NCBI GenBank assembly: GCA_951406725.2
Contig: OX597819.1
Span: 109,244,001-109,308,000 of the forward strand
Reading direction: 5' to 3'
Length of the DNA: 64,000 bases
From: Octopus vulgaris
Lineage: Eukaryota
Of the stretch, positions 622 through 54,360 are shown one piece after another. The position numbers and the translations under genes are program-made. Position 1 is the stretch's first letter. Each line of letters opens with the position of its first letter. The notes beneath the pieces were generated by a model, which was not told the DNA's origin, did not search any database, and worked only from the letters and a program-made list of their open reading frames with translations.

Positions 622-3401
622 ACAACTCTTCTCATTTTTTTTCTTAGATTGGCAATAAGTGTGCGTATTCTGAAATGTAATGCTATATATATATTTATAT
701 ATATATATATATATAACATTACACTTAAGAATATCAACATTTCTATATTACATATATTTTAATGCAGACCCTACTTCCATCTAAACTCGTTTTGACCTAG
801 CTTAAAGAAATACACATCATAAATGTTCAGTTCCTGTTATGTGCAAATGTCATTTACCATATGAGAAAGATGAACAAAACAGATTCTGCGGTGCCATGGC
901 AGACATTTCCTGCTGTTGGGAACCTCTCACATAGTTTCTATGTTCTTTTTTATTTAAGGTAATCTTCAAGTTTTTGACACAAAACCTAAACGACTGCGAG
1001 AATGATAAAGTATGATTTTCGTTATGGCGTTTAGGTTTGTTGTTTTAAATGAAGGACTACCCATTTAAAATTTATTTCCTTGTGTTGGTTAGTTCTCGAC
1101 CCAGATTCAATTTTCTCGGAGCTTTATATTCCTTTTGGTGTCGACGTTAAGTAAACACCTATGGGGAAAAGGCATGAATCACAAAAATTATTCATATCGC
1201 TTCACTCTTATCTATGAAAAAGCATTTGTTTCAATGTCTCTTGCCGAATGCCGCGTGTTCTCCCTTTCATACCTCCACCTGGGATAACATGAAATATACA
1301 TTTATTAGCTTTTTTTTCTTTTCTTTTTTTTTTTTTTTACACAAGTAGTCTTGATAGGGAAAAGGGAGGGACAAATGGCACCCCCCCTATCTCTCGATTG
1401 TATTTTTTCTTCCTAATTTATAACGTACTTCTAAAATGATTCAGACCTTAAGTTTTTGACATCAAATTTGAAACGCAATGAGCTCAATTAATGCTTCTTT
1501 AACTAAGGACAGTTATGGCTAAATGATATACAAATCTTTTTCTTGAAATTTTAAAACAAATTTCTCTAATTACATCTTGAAGAAAATTTGTAACTCTAGT
1601 GTATAACTCTTAGCTCCATGTGCTTGTTTCAGGTTTACCTTCAAAAACTAAAGGACTAATTATAAAAAAAAATAACCCATTGTCAACGAGGGGAAAATAT
1701 TTGAAAAGAAATATAGTTTATAAAGAAATCTCCATCTGAAGATCCTAAATAGTAATGTGAATATTATGATTTAGGTATTTCATTTTACATATTGCCTAAG
1801 GAAAAAAAGCTACAAACTCTGGAATTTTATCAAACTCTTGATGTTTATCAAAACAACAAAAAGAAAAAAAAAAGAATACTAAAACGTGGGAAAAATGTAA
1901 CTCCACCTGCCAAAATGTTCATCCAAAACAAGATTCATTTTTGAACAGTTCTTTAAATATACTCAACATTATTTATTTACAAACTAATCTTTTACTATTT
2001 CATTAGAAATGGCATAAAACGTCACAACATCTCCCTTTAAATAACTCTGAGGGTTTCATGCACATTTGTGAGAAGCTTATTTAAGTGTTTGTAGAGTATA
2101 AAGGGAAGACGCTCTCGGGCGACATGAGTCGAATCCGCGGCCCGGGTTCGATTTCCGCTCTTAGCGATATTCACTTCACTTTACATCACTTAGGTCGCTA
2201 TTGCCCTCCAGAAAGTCATGAACGTCACAGTTACCTACATTTATTTCCATTCTCCAATCCTTCAAGTACCTGTATGAAGCAATTACTATTTGTGTATGTT
2301 TGTATGTATGTATGTTTCCTTGCCAACCCACCCATGCCATTTCCGTTACATTGGTAAAAACCTGTCATAAAGGCCAATTTAGAGCCGTTTGTTTTTTTTA
2401 ATATTATGTAAGGGACAACAAACTATATTAGTATATTAAAATGAAATTTGGATTACTACATTTATATGCTTTTTGTTACTTTATTACTTACGATTTAAAA
2501 AAATACTGTCTTATGTATATATATCATGCTGCCTTAGTAGCTCGCATGGTCTTTAGCAGCATGAGTTACCATTCTTTTAATTCCACTTACTCATTTTATG
2601 ATGTGTGTCGAATGAAGCAAGTTTCCATTTCTTGATATCGCATACATTATCGTGTAAAGAAAATGGTAGAGGAAAAATGTTAACTCCATGCTAAGCAAGA
2701 GAGTTGGCGAAGTATCTCAGGAGTTATAAAAGGTAAATTATATTTTGATTTTGCTGTGTCTATATCAATTGTCTCTGGAGCTAGTTTTAATTATTATTTA
2801 TTCACTTCGGAGAGCAGTGAAAAGAAGACCAAAGAGGTAAGCTCCCCTCCAGCCAGCCGAATATGTGGATCTAGTTTTGATTCCCGATTCCGTTTGCTTC
2901 ACATACGCTGCAGTAGTCGTTGACAAAAGCATGAGCGTCATATTTTATTTTCTCACTAAATTCCTTCATGGCCTAACAGATTACTCGTTATTCCATGGTG
3001 GGGTTAGGGAGTGTCAGAATCAGTGTTGGACTAAATGCTTTGTGATATTTTGTTTCGTCTTTCTTCGATTTCAGTTTAAATTTCAAAGGGATTAATTTTG
3101 GGTCTTTCATTTTTTATGGAGTTGAATATGTGATGTTATGGAAGAAGTACCCTTTCACGGCGTTTTCTGAAGATTCTTCGGATATGTTTTAAAACATCGG
3201 GGATATTGATTTTTTTTTATATCAAAATTTCATTCTCAATCTTGTTTCGTGTGTACGCGATTGGGATGGCTTTTAATTTTTTTTTTTGTCAAAACATTTC
3301 TAAATTGATTATTTATTTAGTAAATTAAATTTTTTTTCTCATTTTCAATTTACACAAGACAATTAAATTCGATGGGACAGTCCAATTCTTTCTAAGCTTT
3401 C

Positions 3402-3432
3402 TGCGCATGCGCAAATTTCGTTTGGCGCCATT
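3402..3432. promoter_or_regulatory. Cluster of NRF1-like (TGCGCATGCGCA), E2F-like (TTTGGCGC) and YY1-like (CGCCAT) motifs
   Basis: Motifs read directly in otherwise CpG-poor DNA. They could instead be RNA-structure elements. Confidence 0.3.
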
Positions 3433-5114
3433 GGATTTCGATTAATTCGATTTGAATGAAGCAATATCTTGCACGCCAAAAGAGTTTTATTTTAATTATT
3501 CTCAAAATGACTACACCACTAGTAAATTATACTGTTCTTTCGATTCTGATGTTCTGGAGTTTTAAAAAAAATTCCTGATTGCTAGTCAGAACACGTGTGA
3601 CTGTCGGTGTAGCATCATTTGGAGCTGAACGGGCTCTTGATGGTGTTATTTAGATATCATCCTCATTTTGCAAAAATATACATTTCTGTACGAAAGGAAA
3701 CGTTTAATGGAACGTTGAGTTACCATTGAACGTGATGTTCATTCTCGTTTATGACTTCGCAAGTGGGGTACCAGTTGATGTCCGTTGCACAAGTTCATGT
3801 TGAAAAGGGAACTGGTTCAGTGTAACGAGCATTGCTGGGAAATTTGTTCCCTAAAAAAGTAAAATTGGCATCCTTTCCTTAAAGGAGTGCCGTTAAAATC
3901 GGTACTCCCTGTCCATGAAATACAGATTGTTGAAAAATTAATTTTAAAAATCAAGTTAGAATCGTTTTTTGAGAAAACTACTAAAAGAGAGATTTCCTTA
4001 TGCATGCACCAGAGTAAACTGCTGATATCTTGGAAGATATTGTAATCTCTCGCCAGGTTCAATTATGATCGCCTGGCTAACCTTGGCTACATTAGGGGCG
4101 GTATACAGCTTAATTATTTAGAACAATATTGGGCACGAATGAGAGGACACCAAACGTAGATGTGCATCAGTTTCCCAGATAAAATAGTACTACCTGGATG
4201 AAGCAATGTACAGATAATTTCTACACATTTTAAAAACCCGCCGATATTTATTCCCAGTGATTTTTAAATGCTATGCTGAAATATTAGTTTCGTATGACCG
4301 CCATTTGTATTGTAATATCATGTTTATCTCCGATGTTTTAAAATATAAAACTCCGAAAAAGTCTTCAATGGAAAAGATAACTTTTTCCAACTCGCCAAAT
4401 AAGTTCCAGGTAATGCTGGGCTTTATTAATATTCCCTTTATGTAAAATATTGTCATTCCTTTTGGGACTGTTTTAACTATCAAATTGAGTGGCTGGAAGA
4501 ATGCATTGATTTACCAAATATCCTATCATTTAACATTTGCTGTGATGCTCTACTAATTATTTATCTTTTACCGACAACTATGTGTTTACAGTAATTATAT
4601 ATGTTTGAAAAATAATGGTATATTTGTATTTTAATTCTGAAAATTCGAATCCTCTCGGCAATATAGGACAGGCAATTTGTTTAATCAAGTTTTAGTGTTA
4701 GCTCATTCATTCAAAAATTTTCATATTTTTTTCATTTTTAACAAATCAACCAACCACCTCCATCTCCTATATAAGAAAGTTAAGACATTTACCAACTATT
4801 TTTCATTTAGCTATTCCCATTTGGAACTTATTTTCACCTCGGTTTCTATTTCACCTTTTATTTCTGACATTGTGAAAAGTTTTTAAGAAACGTCCCTAAT
4901 CGGCGTTTGGGCCTTTTTTTTAAGTCAAAAATTCCTTTCAGTTTAATAAGAATAATTCACCTAAGTCCCCCTTTTCTCCTGTTACTTAAAATACAAAAAT
5001 ATACCAATATATTTCTTAGATCACCCAACAATTTTGTGTAAGTATAATTGTTTTGGTGACTTACATTCCCGAAGATTAGGTTTTTGAATTCACGAGTCAT
5101 CTGTGGCATCGTGG

Positions 5115-5183
5115 TAACTAACATTTAAATTCCTTTTATTGCAGGTCGATGTAGAGAATTTACTTTATCAGAGAAGCCCCATG
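5115..5183 (+). other. Candidate 3' splice site and small non-coding exon downstream of paralog 1
   Basis: Branch point TAACTAAC (5115-5122), pyrimidine tract, TGCAG| at 5144 and a weak donor ATG|GTGGTT at 5184. Confidence 0.4.
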
Positions 5184-6024
5184 GTGGTTCTTTTAGATTT
5201 TTCACTTGAATTATTTTCTAATTGGCATTCAAGAGTGACGTATTGTGTTTTAGTTATTAATTAAAAAAAAAAACTATATAATGGTATTTCCATAATTTGA
5301 CTGGGATGGATATATATGTGTGTGTGTGTGTCTGTCTGTCTGTCTAAGAATCCATAAATCAGAAAAAAATATGTACTTGCATATTTGTTAGAGTGGGTAT
5401 ATTAATCGAAGTGTACAATATCCATTGCAGACGATTAGTTTCGTCGGGTATTATTAAATAAGTCCTATTATGAAACCCTCTCAAGACTGACTCTACTAAA
5501 ATAATAATTGAAAACCCAAAATCGCCAAAGCGATTTGAGAGCCCCGGTATCCTGAGTTCAGTTCATACATCTGCTTTCTCTGGATTGGGTAAATTCTGAG
5601 GCAAGTGTTCTATGGTCAGATGCTGTTCCTATCACCAACCCTCACCTGCTTTTCAAATTACAAATTTTAATTGCAGTTTCACTCGTGATTCTGGGCATGC
5701 CGAGGCTATGGAAAACATTTCCAAGATACCATAATGGGATGGTAGCCGAGAGACCATGTAGTTGGAAAACAAACTGCTCAAGCTACCAGGACTTAAGTAA
5801 ACCAATACCGGTTGTCAAGCGGTGCCGGTGGAACTTCTTTCAGGTTCCGTCTACCAAATTCCCTGAAGATTTAATCCGAGGCTATTATTAGGAAATGCTT
5901 ACTCAAATCGAGAATTTTTAATTGTTTTGGGTTTATATATTCGAAGATTCAATAATCCTGTGTAATCTAGATTGTCGAAAACGTATGTCTGCAAAATATC
6001 ATTTAAAAATATGCATTTTGAAGA

Positions 6025-6330
6025 GGAGCGTAAGAAGTTTTGCTTCCTGACCACATGGTGATGGATCCATTTCCACAGCGTGGCACTTATAGCGTTGTTC
6101 CATAGCCCTTGGCTGACCAATGTCTTTTGGATGGATTTGGTAGAAGAAAACTGAAAGAAGTCCGTCCTGTATATACACACAGCAGTTTAGCATAATAGAT
6201 CGAACCGACAAAATTACCAGGCTTAAATTAAAAAAAAAAATTCAAATTAAAAGGGCTGTCTTGTTCGAAATCCCTTCTAAGCAGCATCCAATATGGCTGC
6301 AGCCTAATGACTGAAACAAGTAAAAAGGTA
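6025..6330 (+). mobile_element. Degenerate tRNA-derived SINE (family S1)
   Basis: Similar to 26700-26858 and 54370-54685 (gtaagaag..cttcc..ccacatgg ... ggatttggtaga..aaactgaaagaag). Confidence 0.65.
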
Positions 6331-6747
6331 ATCAGTCTACATTCTCGAAAGCTTATTTCTGCGAAAGTTCATTTAGAATTATGCTTTTTTTTCTTATAAG
6401 TTATGCAGAAACTTAGCTGTCTGTAATTATAACCCTAACCACACAATCATGCATGCACAATAATTGGTATTGCAGAATATAAATAAATATATATATAGTC
6501 CATTTAATGATGTATAGTTTTTTTTTGTAAGTTCTCGCAATTAAATGCAATTATTCCTAGGGAGCGAACTTTTAGATAACATTAGGATATCAAAGGTTTT
6601 ATAAAATTGCTAATTGTTATAATTTTGGCATCTATTTTACTAAACCATGCTTGTCATGCATATATTCATCTATGCATATAAACTCTCTATTGAATGTTTA
6701 CAATCTGAATTTTTGCAACTTTGACGTTATGTATATACACATGCAAG

Positions 6748-7120
6748 CATGGCTGTGTGGTTGAGAAGTTTGTTTCCATGTGGTCTCGGGGGGTTCAGTC
6801 TCATGGCATAAAATAAGTCTTTTTATAACCCCAGGCTAACCAAAGTATTGTGAGTGGATTTGATCTGCTAAACCTTCGGTCATTCATCAGAGCAGTAAGG
6901 GAGCCCAGTTGTGTGTATGCCTTTGCCCTTGTCTTGATGGTTGTAAATGAGTCACCGTCATACAAGCGGTTTGTTCCCAGTTTTCTGTGAAACATATCTG
7001 GCTATGGGGAAATGATACTTTGCTTCGAAACAAATGAAGGTTGGTGACAAGAAGGGAATCTGGTCATAGAGAAGCTGCCTCGACAAATTCTAACCCATGA
7101 GCATGATGGTGCAAAGATGA
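6748..7120 (+). mobile_element. tRNA-derived SINE (family S1) with RTE-like 3' tail
   Basis: Head ggctgtgtggttgagaag...gggttcagtc. Tail gaagggaatc...acccatgagcatg resembles the RTE 3' end. Confidence 0.6.
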
Positions 7121-8289
7121 ATGTGTTTGTGTGAATTTCGTCTGGTAATTGGAAAGTAAATTTGCCTGTGTTGGGTGAATTTACTTTTTCTTTCCTTTCT
7201 CTTTCTCTAAAATAGCAGCAACTTTAAACTTCTTATCTAACCATGATGATCCTTTTTATTCTTCCTGTTTCAACAGTCATCATTCAGTAACTGAAAGACG
7301 TCTTCGCCAGTTTTGCAGATAAAGGTGGCCTCCATTTTAATTTACTTGTATTATCTAATTTAATTCTTTTAATTAGAAGATAACTTTATCAACTTAAATG
7401 CTTTATCTTTTGCCACTCTGTTGTATCAAAAGGGACCCTTCAATACCCAGGAATGGTCCCTCATGTTGCTTTCTTCTGAATTCACTGAGAGTTAACCAGA
7501 ATCTCAGTAAAATATATACTACCTGGTAATGAGCTGATGGTAGGCTAGCATAGACAAATTTATGGTAAAACATTGAGCATTGATTCAATTAACTCTTCAC
7601 TCTTGCAGAGCTTACTTTGTACCAATTATATAGAACTTCACTTCTTAGTGATGACCTGTTTAAGCTAGGTTGGCTAAGGTCAGAAAACTTCTATTTTTCT
7701 GACTATTTTTTTAATGAGTAGAGCCTGTGTTTTATCTACTTTTCAATCAAAATTTTGGAACAGTTTCATAAGATATCTTTATATATGTTGGTGTTGATAC
7801 CTCAAAATGCTGTTCCAGTTGTGAGAGTTTTTATTTTTAGAGCTTTTGTGTGTAAGCATGTTTACCATCCCCTTCAGTTGGGTGGACAGTAGTAGAAAAG
7901 GAATTTAACTGTAAAAGACAAAATACACTTCTCAAAGTATAATGAATGTAAAAGAATTCTAGTATCAATACAAATTTTTAGATAGATTTTTTTGATGAAT
8001 TATTTTAAGATAAATGTATAATTTAAGTTTTTTTTTTTCTTTATTTCTTTCAGACTTAATCCACAGTTGTATTCTTTTGGTGGCAACTTCTCACTGCTTG
8101 ATCGAAGGGATGCTTTTCAAGTGCCTATTACCAGGTTGAGTCAAGTTTGTTTATTTTTCCATTGTGTTTTTAGTAACTTATGTCATTGATTCAATACTTG
8201 TTCAATTTCAATTGCTCAATTATTTATTCTTCGTTTTTTATGTATAATATATAACCATTGTTTATTCTTTATTTTGCAGCTTTGATAAT

Positions 8290-8560
8290 CAATGGTGAAA
8301 AAATTGCAATTAGAGCCAGTTTATACTACCTGTGGAAAAAGACTGCAAGGGTAGTAACAAAAGAAATGAATGAGGGCCCAAGAATTGTCAACAAATGTTT
8401 GATGCTACCCTCAACGACAGGCCAAGGTTAAGACCTTCTGTTGTGGAAGATGAGGCCTTGCTTGAAATGGTTGAACAAATCAAGAACCAACACTTCCATA
8501 AACTTGGTCTTATAAGTGGATGTTGTCAAGATGTTCCCCATGAACAGACCGATGACTTGT
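8290..8560 (+). mobile_element. Degenerate mariner transposase 5' fragment
   Basis: Frame-hopping translation EKIAIRASLYYLWKK...RPSVVEDEALLEMVEQ...DVPHEQ (HTH region and WVPHEL-like motif). Confidence 0.5.
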
Positions 8561-9270
8561 GAATATTTGCAAAACATTTTTTTGACTTGACCTGGACGTT
8601 TTGTCTCAAAACCAGTTTGTTGCTAAGCAAAGACTGGCAAATGATGCTAAATCCTGGACGCTTCTCTCTGTCCTCTGTACAATTCTTCATCACTTCCACA
8701 AACATTTTTAGTGACTCATTGTATCTTGTAACATTTTCTAACTAAATTGGTCATTGTTTCTCATTGACTCACATATCTGTTACTTCACCTAGAGATTTTC
8801 AGGTACTCTGCTGATACACTATAGCATTTTCTGAAAGAAAAAAAATCACAAGAGTGTATCGTGGTTGTAACATAGTACAGCATATTGAAACCAATTGTGT
8901 TTTTAATTCTAGATCCTTCTACTTTCATTCCAGCAGCACCTACCTTCACTGAGTTACTAAGTATGCCCTTTGTACAGGATTCATTTTCAACTCCTTGTAG
9001 AAACTGGTGTTTGTGAGTAGAAGGCACCATCACCTTCTGATCAGGTTCCTTTCAACACAGAAAAGTTCAATGCAACCTGTTTTCTTGCAGTGCTTCTACC
9101 AACAATTACTAATTTCCTTTTGTGGAAAGTAGCTTACTGAAGCCTCCTTGGTTTTTAACTTTTTCCTTTCGTTACTCATGGTTTAAGTTTCAATATGTTG
9201 CTATGGGCAATGGCACTTCAGACTTACAGCTTATTAAGCTTCGCTAAAGCTAAAATTTCAAGCTTTAAAA

Positions 9271-11435
9271 CTTCTCACTTTGACCGGCAGATTTAAAAAA
9301 TAATTCTTTGCTGCTAAACACTTTTAAACTTTGTATAGTGGTAGAATGTCACATAAAACATCTTTTTCTGTTGGCGTTCTTGAGAAAATTATGTAGTTTC
9401 TAAGCTATTTGTTAAACTTCTCGTATTTTGGCAATTTCAACCTATCAATGACATTGAGGTGAATACAATTACTGCTGTTTGTCACAGTTATTTATGACAT
9501 TTTGTTTGAGATATGCATGTGTATAAAATTATTTTCGTTTGATTTTAGCCTTTCAGTTTATTTTGTTTATTAATTGTTAAACTATTTTCGTTTGCTTTTA
9601 GGTTTACTTTGTTTCTTTTTTGTGTGTGTGTGTGTGTGTGTACATATTGTTTGAATTGTAAATTACTTTGTTTTTTGAAAATAAGTAGTCTAGGCGAGTT
9701 GCTTGTAATAAAAACAGAGGAGGATATGGAGGGGTATTATACCCAGTACTAATAAATTTTAGAAAAGGGCACTTAATGCAAAAGAAATTGGTAGGGAAGA
9801 ATGTTTGCTGGTGGTATAGTCGCAAAGGTTGCTGTGAGAGAGTGTCTGTCTGAAAGGGGACATGGCTAGAAGTTACCACACTTCCTCTGCAGACTGTAGT
9901 CATTTTTTTGTACTCTTGGGTCAAGGAACTGACTGCAGTGTGTTATTGTGTAGAAGAGCTGGATGTGAGCCACAGTGCAGCTGTGGATTACAACAATTAT
10001 GTGAGAGAAGTATGCGCACATGACTTGCTCATGAACCCAGTTGTAAAAGATTGGACATAGACAAGACAGTCTTCTCTAGGAGAAAGTATAATCGAGGGAA
10101 GTTGCTACCTCAGCAATGGGTATTCGGAGTAGTGTGTTGTGAGACCAGGGAAGTTTTTCTTTATGCGGTACCTTGATGGAATCACGACACACTTGAATAA
10201 TGCATCCGCCACTCGATCCTCCCAGGTACCGCAATATTTACTAACCTGTTGAAGGCTTATTCACATATTCCAGAGATAGAGGATACAATTTTTGACATGG
10301 AACAGTGTACCACAGCGTCCAATTTGTTAACTCTTGATAACACACTTACCCAACAAATAGAGAGTACTTGGGCGTGTTTAAAACGGGGTAACAAGCGAAT
10401 TTTAGTAATTTTCCGGAATCTCTGTATCCGAAAAGCTGGGTTTTTGGACCCCCCCCCCCCATAATTCAGTTATATATATACGTTTGCATACGTGGTGATA
10501 CACTTGTATAGCTGTGGCTACACACATACATACACACATTGTATGTATCTGTGCAACAAAGAGGGAAATTAAAACTGTATATGTTGTGAACTTAGAATAT
10601 GTGTTTATTAATAAAAAATTTTCTCTATGCGGTAAATTGACGGAATCACGATACACTCGATTAATGCATCCGCCACTTGATCCTCCTGGGTACCACAATA
10701 TTTAATGACCTGTTGAGGGCTTATTCACATATTCCAGAGATAAGAGGGATACAATTTTCGACATAGAACGGTGTACCACAGCGTTGTTTGTTAACTCCGT
10801 TGATAACACACATAGAGTACTTGGGCGTGTTTAAAACGGAGTAACAAAAGATTTTTGGTAATTTTCCGGAATCTCTGTATCCGAAAAGCTGGGTTTTGGG
10901 CAAAAAAACGATAATTCAGTTATATATATATATACGTCTGCATACGTGGAGATACACTTGTATAGCTGTGGCTACACACACACACATATATATATATTGG
11001 CATACATACACATAGCTGTGCAACAAAGAAGGAAATTAAAACTGTATATGTTGTGAACTTAGAATATGTGTTTATTAATAAAAGTTTAATAACGATAATC
11101 ATTTATTCATACGAACGTAACTGATATGAAATATGTCATAAATAACAGCTGACAATCGAAATATACACTGCCAGAACTTCTTGTTGACAAACAGTAGTAA
11201 TTGTATTCCCCTCAATAGATGTCATTGATTGGTTGAAATTGCCAAGATAAGAGAAATTTAACAAATAGCTTAAAAGCTATAACAATTATGTGAGAGAAGT
11301 ATGCGCACATGACTTGCTCATGAACCCAGTTGTAATAGTTGGTCCTGGGAAGATTGTTGACAGTATACGAAGTTTAAAAGTGTTTAGTTACAAAAAATTA
11401 TTTTAAAAATCTGCTGGTCAAAGTGAAAAGATCTC
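9271..11435 (+). mobile_element. Merlin (IS1016/ISXO2-like DDE) DNA transposon, degenerate, with long TIRs and an internal duplication
   Basis: ~210-bp inverted repeats at 9271-9485 and 11185-11430. Peptide remnants FSRRKYNRGKLLPQQWVFG, ILPGTAIFT..KAY and TQQIESTWACLK. About 10190-10615 is duplicated at 10645-11080. Confidence 0.85.
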
Positions 11436-13742: not shown

Positions 13743-15097
13743 CTACCGACCGGTTTCCCTTACATCAATTATCAGCAAGATGTTCGAAACCATCCTTAAG
13801 AAAAGTATGATGCTCCACCTCCTAAACACAGCCCTCTATCTCTGATTCCCAACACGGCTTCGTGCCGAAGAGATCATGCTTGACCAACTTACTAGTAATG
13901 GAAGAATTGGTGACGTGCATCCTCGATGATAGTGATGCTGTTGACATCGTTTTACTGGACTTTGCCAAAGCTTTTGACTCGGTAAACCACCGCCTATTAC
14001 TTGTCAAGTTTCAAGCATATAGTTTCCATCCGGATATTGTACGATGGGTTGGTGCCTTCCTCTCAGATCGCTCCTTCCAAGTCCAAGTTAATGGTTCGCG
14101 GTCCAACGTCTCCAGTGTGAGCAGTGGCGTGCCTCAAGGTTCAGTGCTTGGGCCCTTGTTGTTCTTAGTCTTCATAAATGACTTGCCCGACGACCTCACG
14201 CAACACACCCTTCTATTTGCCGACGATATCAAACTGGTCGCTCCTCGCGGCAATATAGAGGATCTTCGTCGATGCTTCCACCAAATTTGGAAGTGGTCTA
14301 ACGATTGGGACCTGTGTCTGAACGTGTCAAAGTGCTGTCATCTGCCTGTCGGCTCTACTCCTGCAACTCAACTTGATTTCGAGCCGGGTCGTCTGCTGCT
14401 GGAGAGGACCGATCAGGTAAAGGACCTAGGTATCTTGGTGGATGCCTCCTTTTCGCCTTCGGCCCAGTGCGTCCATGCTGCCAACAAAGCACGCGGAATT
14501 CTGTTCTTGATTCGACGGTCATTCGGAATGCTCACAGCAGCCATATTCCTACCACTCTATGTCACGCTGGTGAGACCCATATTGGAGTATGGGATTCAAG
14601 CCTCTTCTCCTTATCTCCTCAAAGACATACAGCATCTCGAAAGAGTCCAGAAGCTGGGTACCCGCATGGTTCATGGTCTCAAAAATTTGTCCTACGAAGA
14701 AAGGCTGAGGACGCTCGACCTTTATTCTCTTGAAAAACGCCGCCGCCGTGGTGATCTCATTCTCGCCCACAACATCATAAGCGGAAAGTGTAACCTCTCG
14801 AAAGAGCTGTTCTTCACTCCTGCTCCAGAGCGTCGGCTGCGGGGTCATTCCGAAAAGCTCTACCTGCGATGATTTCATCTTAATCGAAGGAGAGGAGCTT
14901 TCTCCGTCCGGGTTGCGGATCCGTGGAACAAGCTGCCAGACGAGATGGTGAAGATGCCGACGACCGCTTTGTTCAAAGCCTCCCTTGACCTCAAGTGGCC
15001 TGAACTCTTTACATGAACACCACCCTGTACTTAACTCCATGTCCCCCTACATGGCCTTGCTATTTGCTTTTGAGCCAAATTAACTAACTAACTAACT
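13743..15097 (+). mobile_element. 5'-truncated CR1/L2-group LINE, RT domain to 3' end
   Basis: YRPVSLTS, QHGF..RSCLTNL, DFAKAFD, GVPQGSVLGPLLF, LFADD, KDLGI, LVRPILEY, RRRRGDL, WNKLP. One frameshift near 13830, premature TGA at 14870 and a (TAAC)n tail. Confidence 0.93.
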
Positions 15098-17160: not shown

Positions 17161-17171
17161 TTTATCGTAAA

Positions 17172-40018: not shown

Positions 40019-40059
<41 letters not shown>

Positions 40060-41891: not shown

Positions 41892-41933
<42 letters not shown>

Positions 41934-42131
41934 AAAGTCTTTGTGAAAATTATTTAATGCAGTTTTTTAAGTGTAAATGGGATTCTTTTAAAAAAATTAT
42001 AAATCTTTTATCAGGCTGTTGTTAACCTTTTTGGAACAAGTATTTTCGTAGTGTGTATTAGTGCTTTCAATTAACCTTTTCAAACACACGTATTCTTGGT
42101 TAATGTATGTATGTATATTTATTTCTATATA

Positions 42132-43385: not shown

Positions 43386-43435
43386 TATGCATATGTGTAT
43401 ATATATATATATTCTCTTATATGTAAGTAGACATT

Positions 43436-43467
<32 letters not shown>

Positions 43468-45853
43468 GGTAACATACAGTAGGTTGCTGAATAAAGAAAA
43501 TGAATGGGATAAAGAGAGTCTGCCGAATGTTGACCCAACAGAGGGACCAGCTATCAGAGTTGATAGTTCCTTGGTAGTTAAGGCAATTAGAAGCATGAAG
43601 ACAGGGAAAGCCCCAGGCCCATCAGGTATCACTGCAGAGATGCTCAAAATATCTGGTAGTGTCGGCTATAGCCTAGTCACCCGTATAGTTAATCAGGTGA
43701 TACATGAAGGAGTCATAGCCAATGACTGGTGTAGCAGTATAATAGTCAACTGCTACAAAGGTAAAGGTGACGCCCTAGATACAAATAATTACAGAGGTAT
43801 CAAGCTGTTGGATCAGGTGATGAAGGTTACGGAGAGGGTCATAGCCCAACTAATCAGAGAGAGAGTTAGTTTAGATGAGATGCAGTTTGGGTTCGTGCCA
43901 GGGAAAAGTACCACTGATGCTATATTCCTGGTAAGGCAGCTGCAGGAGAAATAACTAGCCAAAGATAAGCCCCTGTACCTGGCTTTTGTTGACATGGAGA
44001 AAGCCTTCGACAGGATCCCCCGATCCCTCATCTGGTGGTCAATGAGGAAACTAGAGATAGATGAATGGTTAGTGAGAGCTGTGCGAGCCATGTACAGGGA
44101 TGCTGCTAGTAAGGTGAGGGTTGGCAACGAGTACAGTGAAGGATTCCGGGTAGAGGTAGGGGTCCACCAAGGCTCAGTCCTCAGCCCCCTCCTATTTATC
44201 ATAGTCCTCCAGGCAATAACGGAGGAATTCAAGACAGGATGCCCTTGGGAGCTCCTCTATGCTGATGACCTTGCTCTAATTGATGAGTCACTATCAGAAC
44301 TGGAGGAGAAGTTTCAGGTGTGGAAGCAAGGTTTAGAATCGAAGGGCCTTAGAGTCAATCTAGCTAAAACCAAAGTCCTAATAAGTAGGAAGGTAGACAA
44401 ATCACAAACGCCTTCAGGTAGATGGCCCTGCTCGATCTGTAGAAAAGGTGTAGGTAGAAACTCTATAAGATTCACCAAGTGTAAGCTATAGACACATAAG
44501 AGGTGCAGCAATATCAAAGGAAGGCTAACTAGGAAGATGGTTTTTGTATGTGGCAGATGCTCAGGAACAATAAACACTGAAAATGCTCTGAGACCAACTT
44601 CTGTCACTTTCCAGGGAGAAAAACTAGAAATAGTTGATAGCTTCCGTTACCTAGGTGATCAAGTCAGCAGCGGGGGCGGGTGTGCTGAAAGTGTAACTGC
44701 TAGAGTAAGAATAGCTAGGGCAAAGTTCAGAGAGCTCTTACCTCTGCTGGTGACAAAAGGCCTCTCGCTCAGAGTAAAAGGCAGACTGTATGACGCGTGT
44801 GTACAAACAGCCATGCTACATGGCAGTGAAACATGGGCCGTGACTGCTGAGGATATGCGTAAGCTCGCAAGAAATGAAGCCAGTATGCTCCGATGGATGT
44901 GTAATGTCAGTACTCATACTCGACAGAGTGTAAGTACCTTGAGAGAAAAGCTGGACCTGAGAAGCATCAGATGTGGTGTGCAAGAGAGACGTTTGTGCTG
45001 GTATGGGCATGTGGCAAGAATGGATGAAGATAGTTGTGTGAAAAAGTGCCACACCCTAGCGGTTGAGGGAACCTGTGGAAGAGGCAGACCCAGGAAAACC
45101 TGGGACGAGGTGGTGAAGCACGACCTTCGAACTTTAGGTCTCACTGAGGAAATGGCTAGAGACCGAGACCTCTGGAAGTATGCTGTGCGCGAGAAGACCC
45201 GGCAGGACAAGTGAGACCATAACCCGTGGCCTTCTATATGGGATGTAGCCAGCCCACTTATGCATACCTTCCCTTCTTGGGACATAAAACTCTACTTGTG
45301 AAGACCTGTTGAGGCAAGTTAGAATCAGAATCGAAATTGATCAATGGAAATTGCAGCTGAGCTACCAGTGCCGGTGGCACGTAAGAGAACCATCCGAATG
45401 TGGCCGTTGCCAGCGCCGCCCTGACTGGCCTCAGGCCGGTGGCACATAAAAAGCACCATCCGTTCGTGGCTGTTGCCAGCGCCGCCCAGACTGGCCTCAT
45501 GCCAGTGGCACGTAAAAAGCACCATCCGTTCGTGGCCGTCTGCCAGACTCGTCTGCACCACCATCCGTTCGTGGCCGTTGCCAGCGCCACCCCGACTGGC
45601 CTCGTGTCGGTGGCACGTAAAAAGCACCATCCGTCCGTGGCCGTTTGCCAGCTCTGTCTGGCACCTGTGCGGGTGGCACGTAAAAAGCACCCACTACACT
45701 CACGGAGTGGTTGACGTTAGGAAGGGCATCCAGCCGTAGAAACACTGCCAGATCAGACTGGGCCTGATGCAGCCTTCTGGCTTCACAGACCCCAGTTGAA
45801 CCATCCAACCCATGCTAGCATGGAAAGCGGACGCTAAATGATGATGATGATGA
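43468..45853 (+). mobile_element. RTE-clade LINE, 5'-truncated, near-intact RT
   Basis: ORFs 43484, 43994 and 44537 are in one frame broken by two stops. KAPGP, NYRGI, QFGF, DMEKAFD, GVHQGSVLSP, LYADD, FRYLG. Repeat-containing 3'UTR and (GAT)n tail. Confidence 0.95.
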
Positions 45854-46239
45854 TACAGTATAATAAAAAAAGGAAAAATTTTAGCCATTTCTCCAGAGAC
45901 TGGAAAAACCATGAACAACCTTAATCAATTTTCAAACCTTATTGGATTCTCATCAGAGGCATCCTCATCATTCTGACAAAACTTCAAACTAATAATAATG
46001 ATTGTACTTTGTCTTATGTCTTGCTATTTTTAGCAAGTACACATTTACACATACACACACATCTATATACATATGTATGTATCCATGTGTGTAGACATGT
46101 ATGTGCATCTGTCTGTCTATCTATCTATCTATCTATCTGTCTGTCTATCTATTTATCTATCTACCTATCTGTCTGTCAATCTAATCTATCTATCTATTTG
46201 GCTGTCAATCTATCTATCTATCTATATACACATAATTGA

Positions 46240-46700
46240 TCCTTCACTTCAAGGCCAGACGATATTTCTATACACAATACTCTATACTGAGAGACCCACA
46301 ATAGAATATTGGATTCACATTTGGAATGCTGCTGTTACTGCACATGCAGACATTCTAGATTGTATCTAGTAAGGAGCCCATGACTGATTTGAATTTAGTC
46401 ACTCACAGATCTACTCCAGCTTCTGAGCCACAGGCATGCTCTCTGCTATTTCATCTTGCTAGTATGAAGGCCTCTGCTTGCAGGAGTTGGCTAGGTTCAT
46501 GCCATCTCCACTTAGGTACACGAGTTCCACTTATCTCTCTTACTTCAATTATTCTTGTTTTATTTTTAATTCTCTGGGTCAAGCCTTCCTTCTTAGAACA
46601 TCTGCCTTGTGGAATTTTCCTTGCTTCTTGTGCCATTTTCACAAATCTTACACTGCCCCTTCCTCTAGACCTTGTTAGTAAATATACGTGGTGGAGTCTT
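46240..46700 (+). mobile_element. Old CR1/L2/Jockey-group LINE 3' remnant
   Basis: RPTIEYWIHIW and AFLLRTSALWN remnants. Confidence 0.55.
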
Positions 46701-46837
46701 CACTCCAGTTTTCACTTCCTCGTCACTGGAATAATGTTTACCTCTCAAACCCTCTTTCGTGGCACTGAAGATATGATAGTCTGAAGGTACTAAATCTGGT
46801 GAGTGTGGAGGTAGTGAAGAAGTGTCTCAAAGAGTAG

Positions 46838-47002
46838 TCAACAGAATTTTACGGGGCAGGGATATATGCTTTCATTCGAAGGTGGAACATTGGTATTGAG
46901 TGAAAGGGAGAGAGGACCAGCTTCATTTTGATGTATGATACATGTTCCTGTTTTCGTATTTATACCTGTCCTAAACAAAATGGTATTACTTTTTGACTCA
47001 CC

Positions 47003-47006
<4 letters not shown>
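46838..47006 (-). mobile_element. Mariner-like terminal fragment
   Basis: Minus-strand TA|TGAGGGTGAGTCAAAAAGTAAT TIR-like end next to (TA)n. Confidence 0.45.
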
Positions 47007-47052
<46 letters not shown>

Positions 47053-47425
47053 CCAAACAATCGGTAGACTGCAAGCTACTCTGCGGGCTAAGGATACCTT
47101 GTTGTTAGAGGATCCCGTGTCAACTTGCTAGGGATTTGATCGAATTACATATACTATGCTGTTGAAAAATATCTAGATATATAAAGGTAAGATCCAAGGA
47201 TCAAGGTGCAGGTAGTTAGTGAGCTTCAAGCAATCTGCCGGAGATATAAAAAACAACTTCCAGGAACAATAGTGGTTTATTGTCACAGAAAGTTGTGAAT
47301 TTTTCCCATATTGAAGTACGATAAGCTGAAAAAAGCTAATTTTATAGTTCGCGGTTAGCAACTGGGGTTGTTGTATATGCAAATAAACATTCAAAAATTA
47401 GGGAATGGAGTTGATAAAATCTAGG

Positions 47426-47507
47426 CTAGCGGAACCTCAGAAGTAGTAAATTATCCAAGTGGTCTACCACTCGTTTAGATAATTTACTATTTCTGAGGTT
47501 CTGCTAG
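47426..47507. repeat. ~80-bp palindrome
   Basis: ctagcggaacctcagaagtagtaaattatc / gataatttactatttctgaggttctgctag. Confidence 0.85.
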
Positions 47508-47946
47508 GTATGAAACATATATTTTTATATCTTTTATCTGCTACTTGTTTCAGTCATTAGACTATAGCCACGCTGGAGCACTGCCTTGAATGAATTGACC
47601 CCATTATTTATTATTTTTGAAAACCTGGTACTTATTCTGTCGATCTCTTTCGTTGAGCTGTCAAGTATATATATATATATATATACACACAATTAAAAGA
47701 CAGGATAAAATCTTTATAAGAAATTATCAAGTAGTTAGCGTGAAAAATCTCATAAGGGAAACGTTTATTAATTATTCCCTTGAAATATATTTATTTATAT
47801 TAAGGTCATTACTATACGTAAATGCCTCACGCAAGGTGGGACTCATAAAGTTAAGACTACCACAATAAAACAAAAAAGTATATATATGTATACACACACA
47901 CACATGTATATATATATATATATATACACACACACATATATGTATG

Positions 47947-47978
<32 letters not shown>

Positions 47979-48139
47979 TATATATGTATGTATATAACAC
48001 CATCGTCGTTTAATGGAGAGCGGACGTTAAACGATGATGATAATATATACATTTACATACATATATATACATGCATACATATATATACATACATATACAT
48101 ATATATACATATATATTTATATACATATACATATATATT

Positions 48140-48172
<33 letters not shown>

Positions 48173-48619
48173 ATATATGTCGGAGGAGTCGAAACACCTG
48201 ATGACCCCTTGTTACTTCACTGTTCATCCAGATATATATTACAGAAATATATTGATTATATATATATATATATAATCAATATCTTTCTGTAATATGTATC
48301 TGAATGAAAAGGGACGCCGTTCACACACACACACACAGATATTTAAAGACACAGTAGCCTTGGGTAGATTTTCTACCTGGCCGTCTCCTGTCAACCGTCC
48401 TACCCATGCATGCATGGAAGACGGACGTTAAAACGAAGATGATATAAATATAATATACCATATATATACATACTCATACACACACAAATATATTTATATA
48501 CACATAAATATATGCAGTTCATGCTTATAATTACTCACACAACAATGAACAATCATTCAAACTAATATTTATTGGATTTTATTATTTTCCAGCTCTAATT
48601 CCAGTACCGGAAGTTGTCA

Positions 48620-49253
48620 TGCTTTGCTCCTATCCCCCCTCTCTCCACCTCGTTTCACCAATTATTTTTGCACTCCTCCTCCTCTTTCTACATCTACTCC
48701 CCTTAGACCGCCACCTTCCTATATCTACCCTATTCAGCTTAGTCCTCCTTCTCTCACTCTTACCATCCCTCTCTTGCACTTTTACATTTCTTTCTTCCAC
48801 ACTCTAACACTCAACGCGTTTCCTCTCCTCCCACTCTAGTTAGTTTTGTCTTTTCATCCTCATACCCCTTTCCTCCCTCTCTACCTCTACTCTTCATCGA
48901 CTTCTCCCTCTGTACCTCTACTCTTCATCGACTTCTCCCTCTTTTCTTGCTTTGTTTGCCCTTTCCCCCCCTCTCCTATCTATTTGTGTTCTACCTCCTT
49001 CTGCCACTCTTTCAAGTCTCTTTGAGCAGCGGCCTTTTGAACGAGAGTGGTCGCGCTACTTGCTGGTCTTTATCCGTTAGTGATTAGATGGTAATCCACG
49101 TGGTTTGTCATTTTCATCGCTAGACTCGCCTCTTTGTTAAGTCACGCTCATTACCTTCAGTGCAGCCTGTTGAGGTACTTCTGTTTCACCTCGCTCAATT
49201 TATAATCTAAGGTTTTTTAATAAGTTTGTTCTCATTTCACACCATAAAGGAAA
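48620..49253 (+). promoter_or_regulatory. Putative promoter and spliced 5' leader of hnRNP paralog 2
   Basis: Long CT-rich tract and TCT-like ctcttt motifs at ~49007-49023. Candidate introns 49091-49160 (GTAATC..TTCAG) and 49175-49249 (GTACTT..AAG), then GAAAATG. Confidence 0.5.
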
Positions 49254-50111
49254 ATGCCAGAAAAATTCGGAGAAAACGAGAAGAACTGTAAGTTATTCAT
49301 CGGTGGTTTAAATTTTGAAACCACAGAGGATAATTTAAGGAATCATTTCGGAAAATGGGGTGATGTTGTCGACTGTGTTATAATGAAGGACAGCACTACG
49401 CACAAATCTAAAGGATTTGGATTCGTAACGTTCAAAGACCCAGTCAGTTTAGATATGACCCAAAAAGAGCGTCCACATACGATAGACGGCAAAGTAGTCG
49501 ATACCAAAAGAGCAATGCCCCGCGATGAGGCTCAAGAAAACAAAGTTACCGTGAACAAGATGTTTGTTGGTGGCTTGGACGAAAGTACGTCGGAGGAGCA
49601 AGTTCGTGAGGTGTTTTGCGCCTATGGAGAGGTGGAAAAAATTGAAATGATCAAAGACAGAACAACTGGCAAACCAAAGCGCTTCTGTTTCGTTACCTTC
49701 GACGACCATGATTGTGTAGACAAATGTGTAATACAGAAACACTTCATGCTTAACGGTAAAAATGTCGAAGTGAAGAAAGCTGTATCGAAGAACGAACTTA
49801 ACCAGAACATGCGTGGCGGTCGTGGTGGTATGATGGGTGCTCGCGGTGGTGGCATGAGGGGTGCTTATTCTGGCGGACCCTATGGAGGAGGCCAGGCATG
49901 GAATTACGGCGGACATCAAGGCTATGGAGATAGTTACGGAGCAAGTGGTTACCAAGGTTACGGAGACAGCTATGATGGATATGGACATTTTGGTACCGCT
50001 TATGGAAATGGCTCGGGTGGCGGCCCTACCCGAGGACGTGGTGGCGGTATGTACACACAGCGTGGTATGGGACCTTACGGCGGAGGATATGGCGGCGGCG
50101 CTAATTGGTGA
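49254..50111 (+). CDS. hnRNP A/B-family (A1/A2B1-like) protein, 285 aa: two RRMs plus RGG/Gly-rich tail
   Basis: KLFIGGL, KGFGFVTF, RPHTIDGKVVDTKRAMPR, KMFVGGL, EVKKAVSK, RGG boxes, and PY-NLS-like RGMGPY. Uninterrupted ORF. Confidence 0.97.
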   Translation: MPEKFGENEKNCKLFIGGLNFETTEDNLRNHFGKWGDVVDCVIMKDSTTHKSKGFGFVTFKDPVSLDMTQKERPHTIDGKVVDTKRAMPRDEAQENKVTVNKMFVGGLDESTSEEQVREVFCAYGEVEKIEMIKDRTTGKPKRFCFVTFDDHDCVDKCVIQKHFMLNGKNVEVKKAVSKNELNQNMRGGRGGMMGARGGGMRGAYSGGPYGGGQAWNYGGHQGYGDSYGASGYQGYGDSYDGYGHFGTAYGNGSGGGPTRGRGGGMYTQRGMGPYGGGYGGGANW

Positions 50112-53100
50112 TATTTCTTTCCATAATTAGGATAAAATGTTTATATGCTACTGTAATATTTTTTTTTTTTAAATATTTATTTTTGTAAAAATTTAAAACA
50201 TGAGCATGGCTTCCCTCCACTCCGTTAAAACTCTTTACATAGCTACGACATATTAATCTTCAGAACATTTGTATCTATCTTAACTCCTTAGAAAATGTAG
50301 GTTAGATTGCATTTCCATCGCTTGATAAGTTATTAAAATTTGTTTAGACTAATTAGTTATAAATCTAAAAAAAAAAAAAAAAAATCGGGGAAAGAACTAC
50401 ACGCATGGTTAACTGTCAGGAATAAATTGAAATTTCATTTAAATACCATCCAATTGAAATGAATACATTAGTTGTACTCCATGGCAATATAAAAGCACGT
50501 GAAACAAATGGATAAAAATGAAGAAACGCATTACTGATTTTCTTCCCTGCATTAAAAAAAAAATTCTCATGAAGTCGGTGGGAGTCATTTTAATTGTAAT
50601 TTATTCTAGATGTATTTAGGAAAAATGAAGAAGCTGTTTTGTTTGCGTGCACATCCACACACGTGTGTGTACATACACATAGCAAACAAACAATTGTTAG
50701 AATTTGTAAAAATACGTGGTTTGTTGCTTACGTAATTTTTTTTTCTTTTTTTTCTGATTAAATGAAAGTTTTAGTTTTTATGTAGTTTTTGCAAGCATTC
50801 TATTTATACATTTAGCAAATATGTATTTCTAGTAGTTGTATGGTGTGAACAAGCTTTTTTTTGAGGAGAAAGTTTTGTTGCAGGTGCCCGCCAACTATTT
50901 GGCGCGCCTTTAAAAACATGGCCGCCGACCTGAACTTTTCGCTTGTCTTCTCACATCTAACATTAACATTTATTTGTATGGAGATGAATTGGTTACTTTG
51001 TAAAGAGTTTTGTTTTTTACCTATTTGAAAGTCATTTGAAAATTTTTGTCTGCCTTTTTGTGACTGTTGGCATTTTTTTTTTTCCATTCAATTTTTTTGC
51101 CGCAGTTTATAGAGACAATGTGCATTTTTGGAGCAAAAATGCTTTTTGGCATTTTGAAATCAATTTTACAAAAATAAATCACCAAATTCCCCCCCTTCCT
51201 TCATTTTTATCAGTCATTCACTGATTGAAAAATAACTTTTTCATCGTCCTAGAAAAATATTTAATTTTTTGAGAATGAAAGGAAAAGTTGATTTTAAAAA
51301 AAATCCCTATTCTCATTTGCTCCCCCCCCTTTCCCCCCAAGTCACTCATGTACATATTTTGAAAGAAACATTTGTCTCATAAACCTACATGTCGTGAATA
51401 GTAGTTCTGTTTTCTTTAAGGTTTTTTAATTTTAAAGTTTACTATTTTTTTTCCTTTGAATCCCTTCAGGTTTCTACAAATGCTTAGAAGTTTTCTGTAA
51501 TAGGATATGGTTACGTGTGACTGCCACAATAACCCTGGAAGCAGCTTGCCTAGTTTCGTTCTAAGATAACACAGCTTTCTTATAACGATTTTCTTTGTCC
51601 ATATCCTCACATATTCCTTTTGGTATTCTGCCGGCTTTTACATCACTCACGGCAGAAATGTTAGAATATGGTAAGGGGATGGAATCATTAAGTTCATTAA
51701 CTTCATAAGAAATAGAACTTAAAAAAGCTGCCGTGGGATGAGTGATTGACACATTTTGGCATGATGTTGCTGATAGTATAATGTATGTTCCTTCAGTTAG
51801 GCCAACTATATTAGTAAAAAAGAATTACAAATGTACTAGGAAGGAGCAATTTTAAGAAACATGTAGCATTTTATATGTACTTATATATATTCTTGAATTT
51901 TTCACACTTCATTCCCATCCCTAATCCCCCTCCACCTGAACAAAACCTGTCTGTCAGCCACTCTAGATTACTAATTTCTTAGCCCACTTTCCTATGCTAG
52001 CTACATTGTTCATCGAACCCATTTTGAAAATAAAATCCCGCTCCATTCACTGCCAAAACCTTGTTAAATACCCCCATCAACCTTCAGTTACCTTGCCAAA
52101 TGACCTTAACACAAAAGCTCAAAAGGAGCATTTTGTAATGTTCATGTCCTTTTGTTTAACCAGAAAGAAAAATTTTTTAAGTCCATCCAGTTATTTTATT
52201 TCTCAGCACATACAAAGCAACATTTATGGTTTTAGAGCCGGTCTGGCTGCTTTTGTTATAGTAGTAAGTAGTTCAGTGACTTGCTGCAGCTAGCGTGTTT
52301 TTTTTTCTAATCACGCCGGATATTTTGGTTTAAATTTGTGCATGGGAGGGTCAGTGAGAGAAGTAATGACGTACTTTATCTGAATGAAAAATAGCCAAAT
52401 TTTTTACATGGCGAAGTATAAAATTGTGACCCAGTTTGAGGTTTATTACCTATTAGCAAACAAGTGCTTAAAAATTCAGTCAGTAAGTAATGACTGTTTC
52501 GGTTTGTCAATTCTTGAGTGTATATTTCGTTCACTGACAATTGACCAAATGTCCGATGTCGGCATATAAGCCTATATCGATCTATATTTTGAACATGTTA
52601 ATACAACCTGATGCAATCGCTACATTAAAAATATCACTCGTTATTATCATGTTCTGTATTGTGCCAACGTGACTTGGAAGTGACATTTGGAAACGGTCCT
52701 TCCTCAGGACTTAAAGACTTTGCAATGCCTTTCAGATTGCTGTCAAAGGAACTAATTAGGCCAATACTGCACTTGGTCACCGTGTCAGTATAGTGTGTTA
52801 CCTCGAGGCTGGATCGGCTTCACAAACACTTATCCTTAGCATACTTAGGTACTTCCCCTGTGAATCTTGCATCTTGTGCCTTTATGAATAGTATCGTTAA
52901 AATTTAAAAACTCAGTTGTACGTCATTTTCTGAGGTCAATGGTTGTTTTACACTCCTCATGGCATTAGGTCAATCGACCCACTTCGTGCAGATCACTGCT
53001 CATTTTCTTCAAACATCACTGGAATGAATTATAACTACTCACCTAACCCCCCTTTCACATAGTTTTCTTGCCCTTTTTGAGAACCCTTCTTTCACCTTCA

Positions 53101-54360
53101 CGTTAAAATTTAACTTTCTTTCAACATTCTTAATGAAATTGTTTTATTTTATGTATACATTATATATATATTTTTTAATCTTTATTTTTAAGATAACTTC
53201 AAAATTGAAAGGGAGGAAGACATAAAAAGGAGATCTTGTATATTCCCCATTTATAAACAGTTGTGAAAACAGCCAGGGGTCGCCCCTAACCCCTAAGTTT
53301 TTATATATATTTTTTTTCCAAACCAAAAATGTAAATTTAAAAAAAAAAATAAAATTAAAATCATCTTCTTGTAAATATAAGACGTATTCTTGTTAAGTTA
53401 TTTCTGTATTCGTTATTTCATATTTTTTCTTTATTATATTAGCTGGTTGACTCCTTTCTCACTGGCTTTGTCTCGAGTGGGTAGTGAAAAAATACTAAAC
53501 AAACTAATCCAAATAGTTTATTTTCTGACAACGTGACTGAGGTTACCAGTGAAATTATGAAAATCACGCCTTAATAAGTGACCAAAAGTGATTGAAATTG
53601 ATTCGTAAATTATTAAAAAAAAAATTAGAAAAGTTGTATTGACCTTCTCTAAGGACTGTTTTGAGAACTCATTGAAAGAGACTAGGTGATTAGCACCCCG
53701 CTTTCAGTTTTGTAATTGAAGCATCACTCTTTGTTATAGGACTTCTGCAATGGTCGGCTAAGTATTCTTTCATTAAGGTCGTGGGAAACTATTCTGCGCA
53801 GTTTTTTTTCCTTTTTGTTGTTCAGATATGTTGCACGTTCCAGGCATCTTGGGTAAGCAAACAATAATGGTAATTTTTAGCCGTAACAGCTTGCCACAAA
53901 TTAGTGAGCTGTTGTGATAGTGGATCGAATCTTCTCTAAAGACTGAAACTTTTCTCGTGTGAGAAATCAGAATTTGCCCATGACAGATACTTTCAGAATA
54001 TCCGGCCCAATAAAGACCTTCACCCGGGAACAAAAAAAAAAAATAATAAACCAGCCTGGTGGGTACAAACAAGTGTGGAAAACGAATATGCTATCGAGTT
54101 CATGGGATTTCAATAAAGTCGATCTCATTGCCGTGTTTTATAAGATCCACGTGGATTAGATTTTCGCTCTGCCTTGTATCACTGACCCTGACTGAAACAA
54201 TGGTGTTCATACTCGTATGTATTACTCGTCCTTTAACGGCTATGATCCCAAACTCGTGTATAGCAATTGTGGTTCCCACAGATCTTGTTACAGATTTTCT
54301 AGCAATTTCATCTGTATGTGATTTCGACTTAATTATTAAATCGCCTTTAACTTTGTACAC
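50112..54360 (+). other. Structured non-coding 3' domain of hnRNP paralog 2
   Basis: No recognisable TE until 54370. Hairpins at 50881-50932, 51598-51683, 52243-52293 and 52500-52555. Collinear matches to 622-4000. Confidence 0.6.

Follow-up and report, generated by a model that had tools for sequence, protein, structure and literature searches.

The human genes HNRNPA1 and HNRNPA2B1 both carry the stop codon in the penultimate exon and are described as regulating one another through their 3′ untranslated regions (UTRs) (PMC8068773, PMC9634572). HNRNPA1 is reported to repress the splicing of its own intron 10 (Suzuki and Matsuoka 2017, as cited in PMC8068773 and PMC9634572), and HNRNPA2B1 autoregulates by splicing in its 3′UTR together with nonsense-mediated decay (NMD), its stop-proximal junction lying too near the stop codon to trigger decay (PMC3091714); a review covers the class of such autoregulation (PMC7547044). 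PABPN1 has an inefficiently spliced 3′-terminal intron that is retained (PMC12385487), and retrogenes can gain introns (PMC3565874). A preprint on squid hnRNPA/B-like proteins 1 and 2 (bioRxiv 10.1101/2021.07.02.450876) mentions no UTR, intron or isoform in the parts of it considered here. Here we describe a 64,000-nt window of Octopus vulgaris DNA, on contig C6 of a 2.8-Gb genome, in which two hnRNP A/B-type genes, termed gene 1 and gene 2, lie about 49 kb apart on the + strand, each followed by several kilobases of non-coding DNA:

1..621, + strand: 3′ part of the intronless hnRNP A/B coding sequence of gene 1 (open reading frame, two RRMs, unbroken RNA contigs)
49254..50111, + strand: intronless hnRNP A/B coding sequence of gene 2 (open reading frame, RNA contigs, RRM matches)

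A preliminary description of this window had proposed that a large RNA module is common to the 3′ sides of both paralogs. That more striking claim is not supported. We consider it fairly probable instead that each stretch is the 3′ end of its own gene, the two genes being old hnRNP A/B duplicates, with an unspliced UTR in gene 1 and an intron that exists in two states in gene 2, the latter likely serving as a switch through which hnRNP A/B proteins restrict the output of gene 2. A literature search, with most subscription journals outside its coverage, found no paper on the structure of cephalopod hnRNP A/B genes or on the gene 2 intron.

The intron at the stop codon of gene 2

At least half of the sequence words of 50112-54360 are contained in 18 of the 24 sequencing runs, and four runs were compared across 47500-60500, among them X3 and X5, taken as RNA-type, and X6, taken as DNA-type (the types are guesses). 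X19, from organism D, was considered as a source of an ortholog and set aside, as its five longer pieces are 100% identical to the window and were treated as carry-over. The RNA contigs of gene 2 start at 49029-49042 and define the following 3′ structure:

50108..53192, + strand: only intron of gene 2, 3,085 nt, GT-AG (RNA joints, retrocopy, unspliced contigs)
53193..53380, + strand: terminal exon of gene 2, about 190 nt (processed copy on C8; RNA cover falls off here)

The joint 50107/53193 is present in X3 and X5, which come from two studies, and among the joints listed there is none for the DNA run X6. The donor splits the terminal Trp codon after its second base, and exon 2 opens with the base that completes a TGA. 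Because the splice removes the Trp and rebuilds the stop codon, the spliced mRNA encodes a protein of 284 residues ending in Asn and the unspliced RNA one of 285 residues ending in Asn-Trp, with the stop codon at the end of the penultimate exon. The terminal exon contains AATAAA at 53348, about 27 nt before a poly(A) site near 53380.

The splice is also recorded in the genome itself, in a processed retrocopy on another contig:

L019, about 2840-3050 (G000:C8:72705340-72705550): 5′-truncated copy of the spliced gene 2 mRNA, directly after a repeat fragment

In this copy, 11 of the 12 nt from the end of exon 1 match and are joined straight to exon 2; the match covers 53192-53380 and gives way to an A-rich run at the point equivalent to 53380. 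Among public protein records, P0121-P0123, from O. bimaculoides, O. sinensis and this genome, have Asn as their last residue, and existing annotations already imply the intron; Asn-Trp is the ending of P0001 and P0124.

Spliced and unspliced forms of gene 2 RNA coexist. In X3, a single 3,144-nt contig runs from 50078 to 53221 at depth 24, next to a joint depth of 42 and fragments at depth 3-6 farther downstream; in X5, intron contigs reach depths of 400-1540, with 1424 at the joint and 0-10 over unique DNA downstream. These contig depths give no retention level, and the contigs break at the donor where both forms are present.

On a rough matrix, the donor in use scores -1.3, below all ten of the best donor-like sites listed. 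The strongest donor-like site in the intron is a GT at 51671, with acceptor-like sites upstream at 51341, 51420 and 51469, one of which coincides with a motif noted in the preliminary description at 51465. Around this GT lies a predicted structure:

51598..51683, + strand: predicted hairpin around the GT at 51671 (z -2.9, 2/200 shuffles, picked after a scan)

The 51671 donor and the upstream acceptor-like sites could define a candidate NMD-triggering cassette exon, on prediction only. Contigs cross 51671 unbroken and no use of the site appears among the listed joints, where decayed forms would be rare.

Two further observations concern the intron. An A>G difference at 52843 in X3, absent from the reference, X5 and the DNA run X6, marks a candidate adenosine-to-inosine (A-to-I) editing site or an allele. 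A copy of 545 nt from 51792-52336, 75% identical, lies at another locus, where it ends near an A-rich run (L020 3537-4104, G000:C7:8676536-8677103) and is possibly an old retro-fragment of intron-containing RNA.

The unspliced 3′ end of gene 1

The RNA of gene 1 was followed over positions 1-5750 in the RNA-type runs X3, X5 and X24 and the DNA run X6. X24 is a run of organism E, a more distant relative whose coding sequence differs by 3%. The gene 1 product has 291 residues, with the start codon about 250 nt upstream of the window.

622..2411, + strand: main 3′UTR of gene 1, about 1.75 kb, unspliced (contigs of X3, X5 and X24)
2412..5750, strand not given by the contigs: faint repeat-poor extension (cover in X5, X3 and X24)
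524..8053, + strand: intron implied by database isoform P0130, whose tail maps to 8053-8136

Contigs span the UTR up to 2285-2411 with no joint. The main RNA ends at about 2330-2460, with ATTAAA at 2435, although contigs cannot fix the exact end; past it, cover falls 10- to 50-fold, from 92 to 4-8 in X3 and from 745-2436 to 42 in X5. No stop-proximal intron was found in the three runs, whose contigs pass the stop codon unbroken (564-724 being skipped as repeat), and the P0130 splice at 523 was likewise unseen in them over 1-5750, contigs crossing 523 unbroken. In the extension, X5 contigs cover 2630-5301 and 5352 to past 5750 at a depth of about 40, and X3 and X24 are patchy; the RNA may be read-through, a minor long isoform, an intron of a minor isoform or a separate RNA.

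In terms of conservation, the UTR differs from X24 by 7.3% over 728-1449 (with many gaps), 3.3% over 1737-2092 and 8% over 2212-2285, and synonymous sites differ by 6.4-8.8% (8 of the 14 listed changes, 17 in all). As its divergence is close to that of synonymous sites over most of its length, the UTR is not ultraconserved, and the high conservation suggested in the preliminary description is not supported for it. Compared with organism B, a close relative, 1 of 1,517 nt is changed in the UTR, a rate below that of the pooled flanks (53/5,259).

Two structures are predicted within the UTR:

976..1043, + strand: predicted hairpin with candidate A-to-I site 984 (z -4.4 for 960-1090, picked after a scan)
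1443..1657, + strand: predicted long stem pairing 1443-1474 with 1626-1657 (inverted repeat I4; helices p>0.7)

The long stem holds a motif that the preliminary description had placed at 1628 and the candidate A-to-I sites 1637 and 1650. The A>G change at 984 occurs in X3 and X24 and is absent from the reference, X5 and X6; those at 1637 and 1650 occur in X3, the former also in X24 (91% of depth), and neither in the reference, X5 or X6. All three lie in or directly beside predicted helices, 1637 appearing opposite a C, and like 52843 they are candidate editing sites or alleles. X3 has 8 A>G places in this stretch, of which 4 are among those listed.

Several other features of the gene 1 side stand on their own. 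Two adjacent stable hairpins (z -3.7, 0/200 shuffles) lie at 3540-3680 in the faintly transcribed stretch, and one low-depth contig of organism E skips 226 nt at 3551-3778. Within the UTR, 2120-2165 contains a 12-bp stem with a B-box-like word, perhaps a relic of a tRNA-derived repeat.

The two genes are old duplicates

The assignment of both genes to the hnRNP A/B type, made in the preliminary description, holds: each product contains two RRM_1 stretches, followed in the translations by a Gly-rich tail, the named relatives closest to both are of the A/B type, and both group with A/B proteins. The genome contains at least ten hnRNP A/B-like loci, of which six have an uninterrupted coding sequence, one is a pseudogene of the C1 copy and four are intron-bearing. 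The uninterrupted copies outside the window are C1, C20a, C7a, C7b and the C4 pseudogene (derived from C1), with C7a and C7b very divergent; the intron-bearing paralogs are C20b and three clustered at C6:131.92-131.98 Mb.

An RRM tree of 30 rows, with two vertebrate rows skipped and C7a/C7b and C20b left out, places gene 2 and C1 as sisters and gene 1 as sister to that pair (97/97 and 100/99). An exclusive pairing of genes 1 and 2 is rejected by this tree (p-AU 0.017), and a quick tree in which they appeared as unrelated lineages is overturned by it, since they form one clade with C1. Gene 1, gene 2 and C1 each have a separate ortholog group, and the cluster of the C1 group holds a cuttlefish protein; on these grounds the duplication is older than the split between octopus and cuttlefish. 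That split dates to about 270 Myr.

Proposed regulation of gene 2

The mechanism that we propose starts from the weak donor, which would make splicing inefficient and open to repression. Spliced mRNA, with its junction at the stop codon, would escape NMD and carry a short UTR; unspliced RNA, with a 3.27-kb tail, would be held in the nucleus or degraded, like RNA retaining HNRNPA1 intron 10 or the PABPN1 terminal intron. A rising level of hnRNP A/B protein would favour retention and thereby close a negative feedback loop, and the internal donor at 51671, a prediction only, could add an NMD route like that of HNRNPA2B1. The chances that the protein exerts negative feedback through retention appear to us about evenly balanced.

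The intron has 9 changes in 2,861 nt (0.31%) against organism B, the very close relative that alone covered the intron, compared with 53 in 5,259 nt (1.0%) in the pooled flanks (p=0.0004). Several points weigh against a regulatory intron. The adjacent stretch 54488-56809 is as low in divergence as the intron (0.39%, p=0.81), which leaves constraint unproven, and no distant ortholog of the intron was readable. The unspliced RNA may be nascent pre-mRNA, and some of the intron RNA may represent alternative 3′ ends, as three AATAAA sites lie within the intron. The density of UAG-type motifs, which hnRNP A1 prefers, is 15.6 per kb in the intron and 14.9 per kb in the untranscribed DNA that follows, so that the intron shows no enrichment.

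If the feedback is real, control of hnRNP A/B genes through the last intron would extend beyond vertebrates to molluscs, in a gene with a regulatory intron as its only one, which would suggest that the architecture was selected for regulation itself. Gene 2 would also be a compact test case for the origin of introns in retrogenes.

Origin of the gene 2 intron

Gene 2 has an intronless coding sequence in a genome that also contains intron-rich paralogs. As the coding sequence has no introns, this one either came down from a parent transcript that was only partly spliced or arose afterwards; we weakly favour gain. The intron did not align, beyond repeats, to the downstream DNA of seven paralogs, perhaps because the divergence is too old. 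Gene 2 has the stop-proximal layout of the family in minimal form: donor-like GT sites occur about 24-34 nt after the stop codon in the three intron-rich C6 paralogs and at 0 nt in C20b, as read from their sequences only.

Alternatively, the intron may be part of an old, long 3′UTR that was intronised recently, is spliced weakly and has no feedback role, the two forms being ordinary mRNAs that differ in one residue and in UTR content (localisation, microRNA and editing sites). This alternative is consistent with a weak donor made of the Trp and stop codons, with the absence of UAG-type motif enrichment, and with intronisation of retrogenes as a known process (PMC3565874). It also fits the relatives. 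The sister copy C1 has the same junction, but its C4 pseudogene runs past the stop codon unspliced and the four listed C1 orthologs end in Trp; among more distant gene 2 orthologs, 9 of 9 end in Asn-Trp, as does an argonaut protein, which is a hint only, as these records may derive from DNA. The splice is nevertheless retained in the annotations of at least three Octopus genomes, the position of the intron mirrors the stop-proximal intron of the family, and no transposon interrupts the intron along its 3 kb. We regard the absence of a feedback role as a doubtful explanation, though one that deserves some weight.

A bolder version of the regulatory reading holds that a retro-derived gene re-evolved the stop-proximal regulatory intron of its family, in the octopus line, from its own 3-kb 3′UTR, with its terminal Trp and stop codons serving as the donor, in a convergent rebuilding of HNRNPA1-type autoregulation. 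We offer this tentatively, and expect it to prove wrong rather than right. If it were true, one splice would switch the C-terminal residue, the entire UTR and a poison exon masked by a hairpin, an unusually simple system for study.

The downstream regions show no detectable homology

The preliminary description had linked the two downstream domains through a collinear chain of nine motif pairs. Its six motifs of 9-11 nt do occur exactly twice each in the window, where they had been reported. The shorter words are also present at their reported places, but GGACT occurs 32 times, GTTACCA 5 times and GCTGC 41 times in the window. With respect to the gene ends, five of the nine pairs lie past the main end of gene 1; on the gene 2 side the intron contains eight, and the remaining one falls beyond the poly(A) site.

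Comparison of the domains by blastn under four scoring schemes gave only A/T runs and repeat fragments beyond the domains, and the downstream DNA of eight paralogs did not align beyond repeats. Once low-complexity words are dropped, the domains have 63-65 exact matches of at least 9 nt in common, and shuffled sequences about 71. The richest 500-nt diagonal band contains 13 exact matches, compared with 12.5 in shuffles (148/300 reach it), a count also reached by 20/60 and 24/60 real unique-DNA controls. Under three gap settings, 65, 93 and 94 of 100 local shuffles align globally as well as the domains do, and ungapped identity beside the six anchors is 11.2/40 (28%), equal to background. A band fixed at the offsets of the preliminary description had seemed enriched in 9-mers (13 vs 8.0; 11-12/200) though not in 8-mers (24 vs 25.6); the enrichment disappears when the null is also allowed its best band, and the band was rejected.

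A few results point toward a common origin and against separate 3′ ends. The gap-penalised chain score is matched by only 7/300 shuffles and by 2/60 and 3/60 real controls, extension of the flanks gives p=0.049, and shared ancestry of the DNA is plausible for genes of one clade. Across settings, 3 to 58 of 200 shuffles reach the chain score, and three other paralog pairs of 21 have a similar level; in one setting only, the domain pair ranks first among 21 global scores when compared with real unique DNA. As a positive control, a 75%-identical true copy scores 104 by the same chain method, vs 25 for the domain pair. There is no detectable homology between the domains, and the remaining signal is of the kind expected when about 64 chance matches are searched; the comparison with shuffled controls is no better than chance except for the marginal chain score. 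Faint ancient remnants of common sequence may persist in both domains.

Folding does not set the domains apart either. Windows with z below -2 number 2/26 in the gene 1 UTR, 8/47 beyond it and 4/50 in the gene 2 intron, and 4/47 and 3/56 in control regions, so that the reported richness in hairpins does not exceed that of neighbouring DNA; the paired hairpin regions themselves have fold z values of -1.9/-0.7 and +1.7/+1.05. Rfam gave 0 matches at the gathering score in the window, 0 at E<=1 in 50000-54500, and in 600-5800 five weak miRNA-model matches far below the cut-off, four of them on an AT repeat. A search for tRNA and tmRNA found none in the window, including at the B-box-like word near 2145, and a metagenome scan for cephalopod orthologs returned 60 loci, the best at 60% identity and none used.

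Taken together, these data make it improbable that both domains descend from a single structured RNA module that was copied along with the gene and survives as short collinear motifs. Tandem duplication with downstream DNA would be plausible for genes 49 kb apart on the same strand and in one clade with C1 (97/97), and the chain score, the flank extension, the single top-ranking global score and the poverty of both regions in repeats lean the same way. Set against this, match counts, best band and global alignment to local shuffles are all at chance, there is no fold excess or Rfam match, the spacing is off (two motifs 21 nt apart in gene 1 are 289 nt apart in gene 2), the 3′ anatomies of the genes differ, and C1, nearer to gene 2 than gene 1 is, has no signal (27/60). 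What stands of the original idea is the presence of transcribed, kilobase-scale 3′ non-coding sequence at both genes, a long 3′UTR in one and a retained intron in the other, two of the three forms that it had suggested; the single shared module does not.

Repeat-poor character and other features of the window

The scarcity of repeats in both domains, pointed out in the preliminary description, is borne out: nowhere else in the window do interspersed repeats stay absent for as long as in 48444-54366 and 758-6029, by a repeat mask built from 40 random 10-kb genome loci only, of which 2 contain clean runs of at least 4 kb. Judging from the depth of the DNA run, repeat-like pieces begin at about 5350; an (AT)n tract lies at about 680-720. 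Similarly clean 3′ regions follow C20a and C20b and not C1. The lack of transposons would reflect selection against insertions in transcribed 3′ regions, a trait common to the two further paralogs.

One set of short words lies in each domain, at 3402-3428 and 50898-50924, and includes an E2F-like 8-mer identical in both; we take the words to be NRF1-like (3402), E2F-like (3421, 50898) and YY1-like, and they could mark internal promoters. We consider it very improbable that some of each domain belongs to a separate non-coding transcript or promoter and not to the hnRNP mRNA, the most plausible case being the faint RNA from about 2630 behind gene 1. In its favour, X5 has no cover at 2305-2496 and then even cover from 2630, and the NRF1-like and E2F-like words lie inside the domains, but gaps in coverage are no proof, every bin has cover in X3, the contigs give neither strand nor start, and the gene 2 splice ties its region to the mRNA.

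Farther from the two genes, observed/expected CpG falls to 0.2-0.3 over 7001-10000, vs 0.7-1.1 over the gene 1 domain, and strong acceptor-like sites lie within this stretch at 8053 and 8279; it could be a methylated transcript body, of either a longer RNA or a separate one. Between the genes, 13826-14872 and 43469-45214 contain reverse-transcriptase-like open frames, which we take to be LINE-type elements.

Comparison with known systems

The squid hnRNPA/B-like proteins are cephalopod hnRNP A/B proteins of similar size. Like the retrogenes that gain introns, gene 2 has an intronless coding sequence, intron-rich paralogs and one intron possibly derived from a cryptic site; it differs in that no parent's UTR or last intron was found to align with its intron. 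With PABPN1, a member of another protein family, gene 2 shares the character of an RNA-binding-protein gene with an inefficiently spliced terminal intron. As in HNRNPA2B1, the stop-proximal junction of gene 2 is too near the stop codon for decay, and the predicted donor at 51671 could supply a junction that triggers it, whereas the gene 2 contigs contain no downstream junction and high conservation is a feature of the human case. In contrast to HNRNPA1, for which repression of the last intron is reported, feedback in gene 2 is proposed from gene structure, the intron is the sole one of the gene, and its donor lies inside the last codon, such that splicing alters the C-terminal residue. Like HNRNPA1, gene 2 is an hnRNP A/B gene whose penultimate exon holds the stop codon and whose last intron can be left unspliced.

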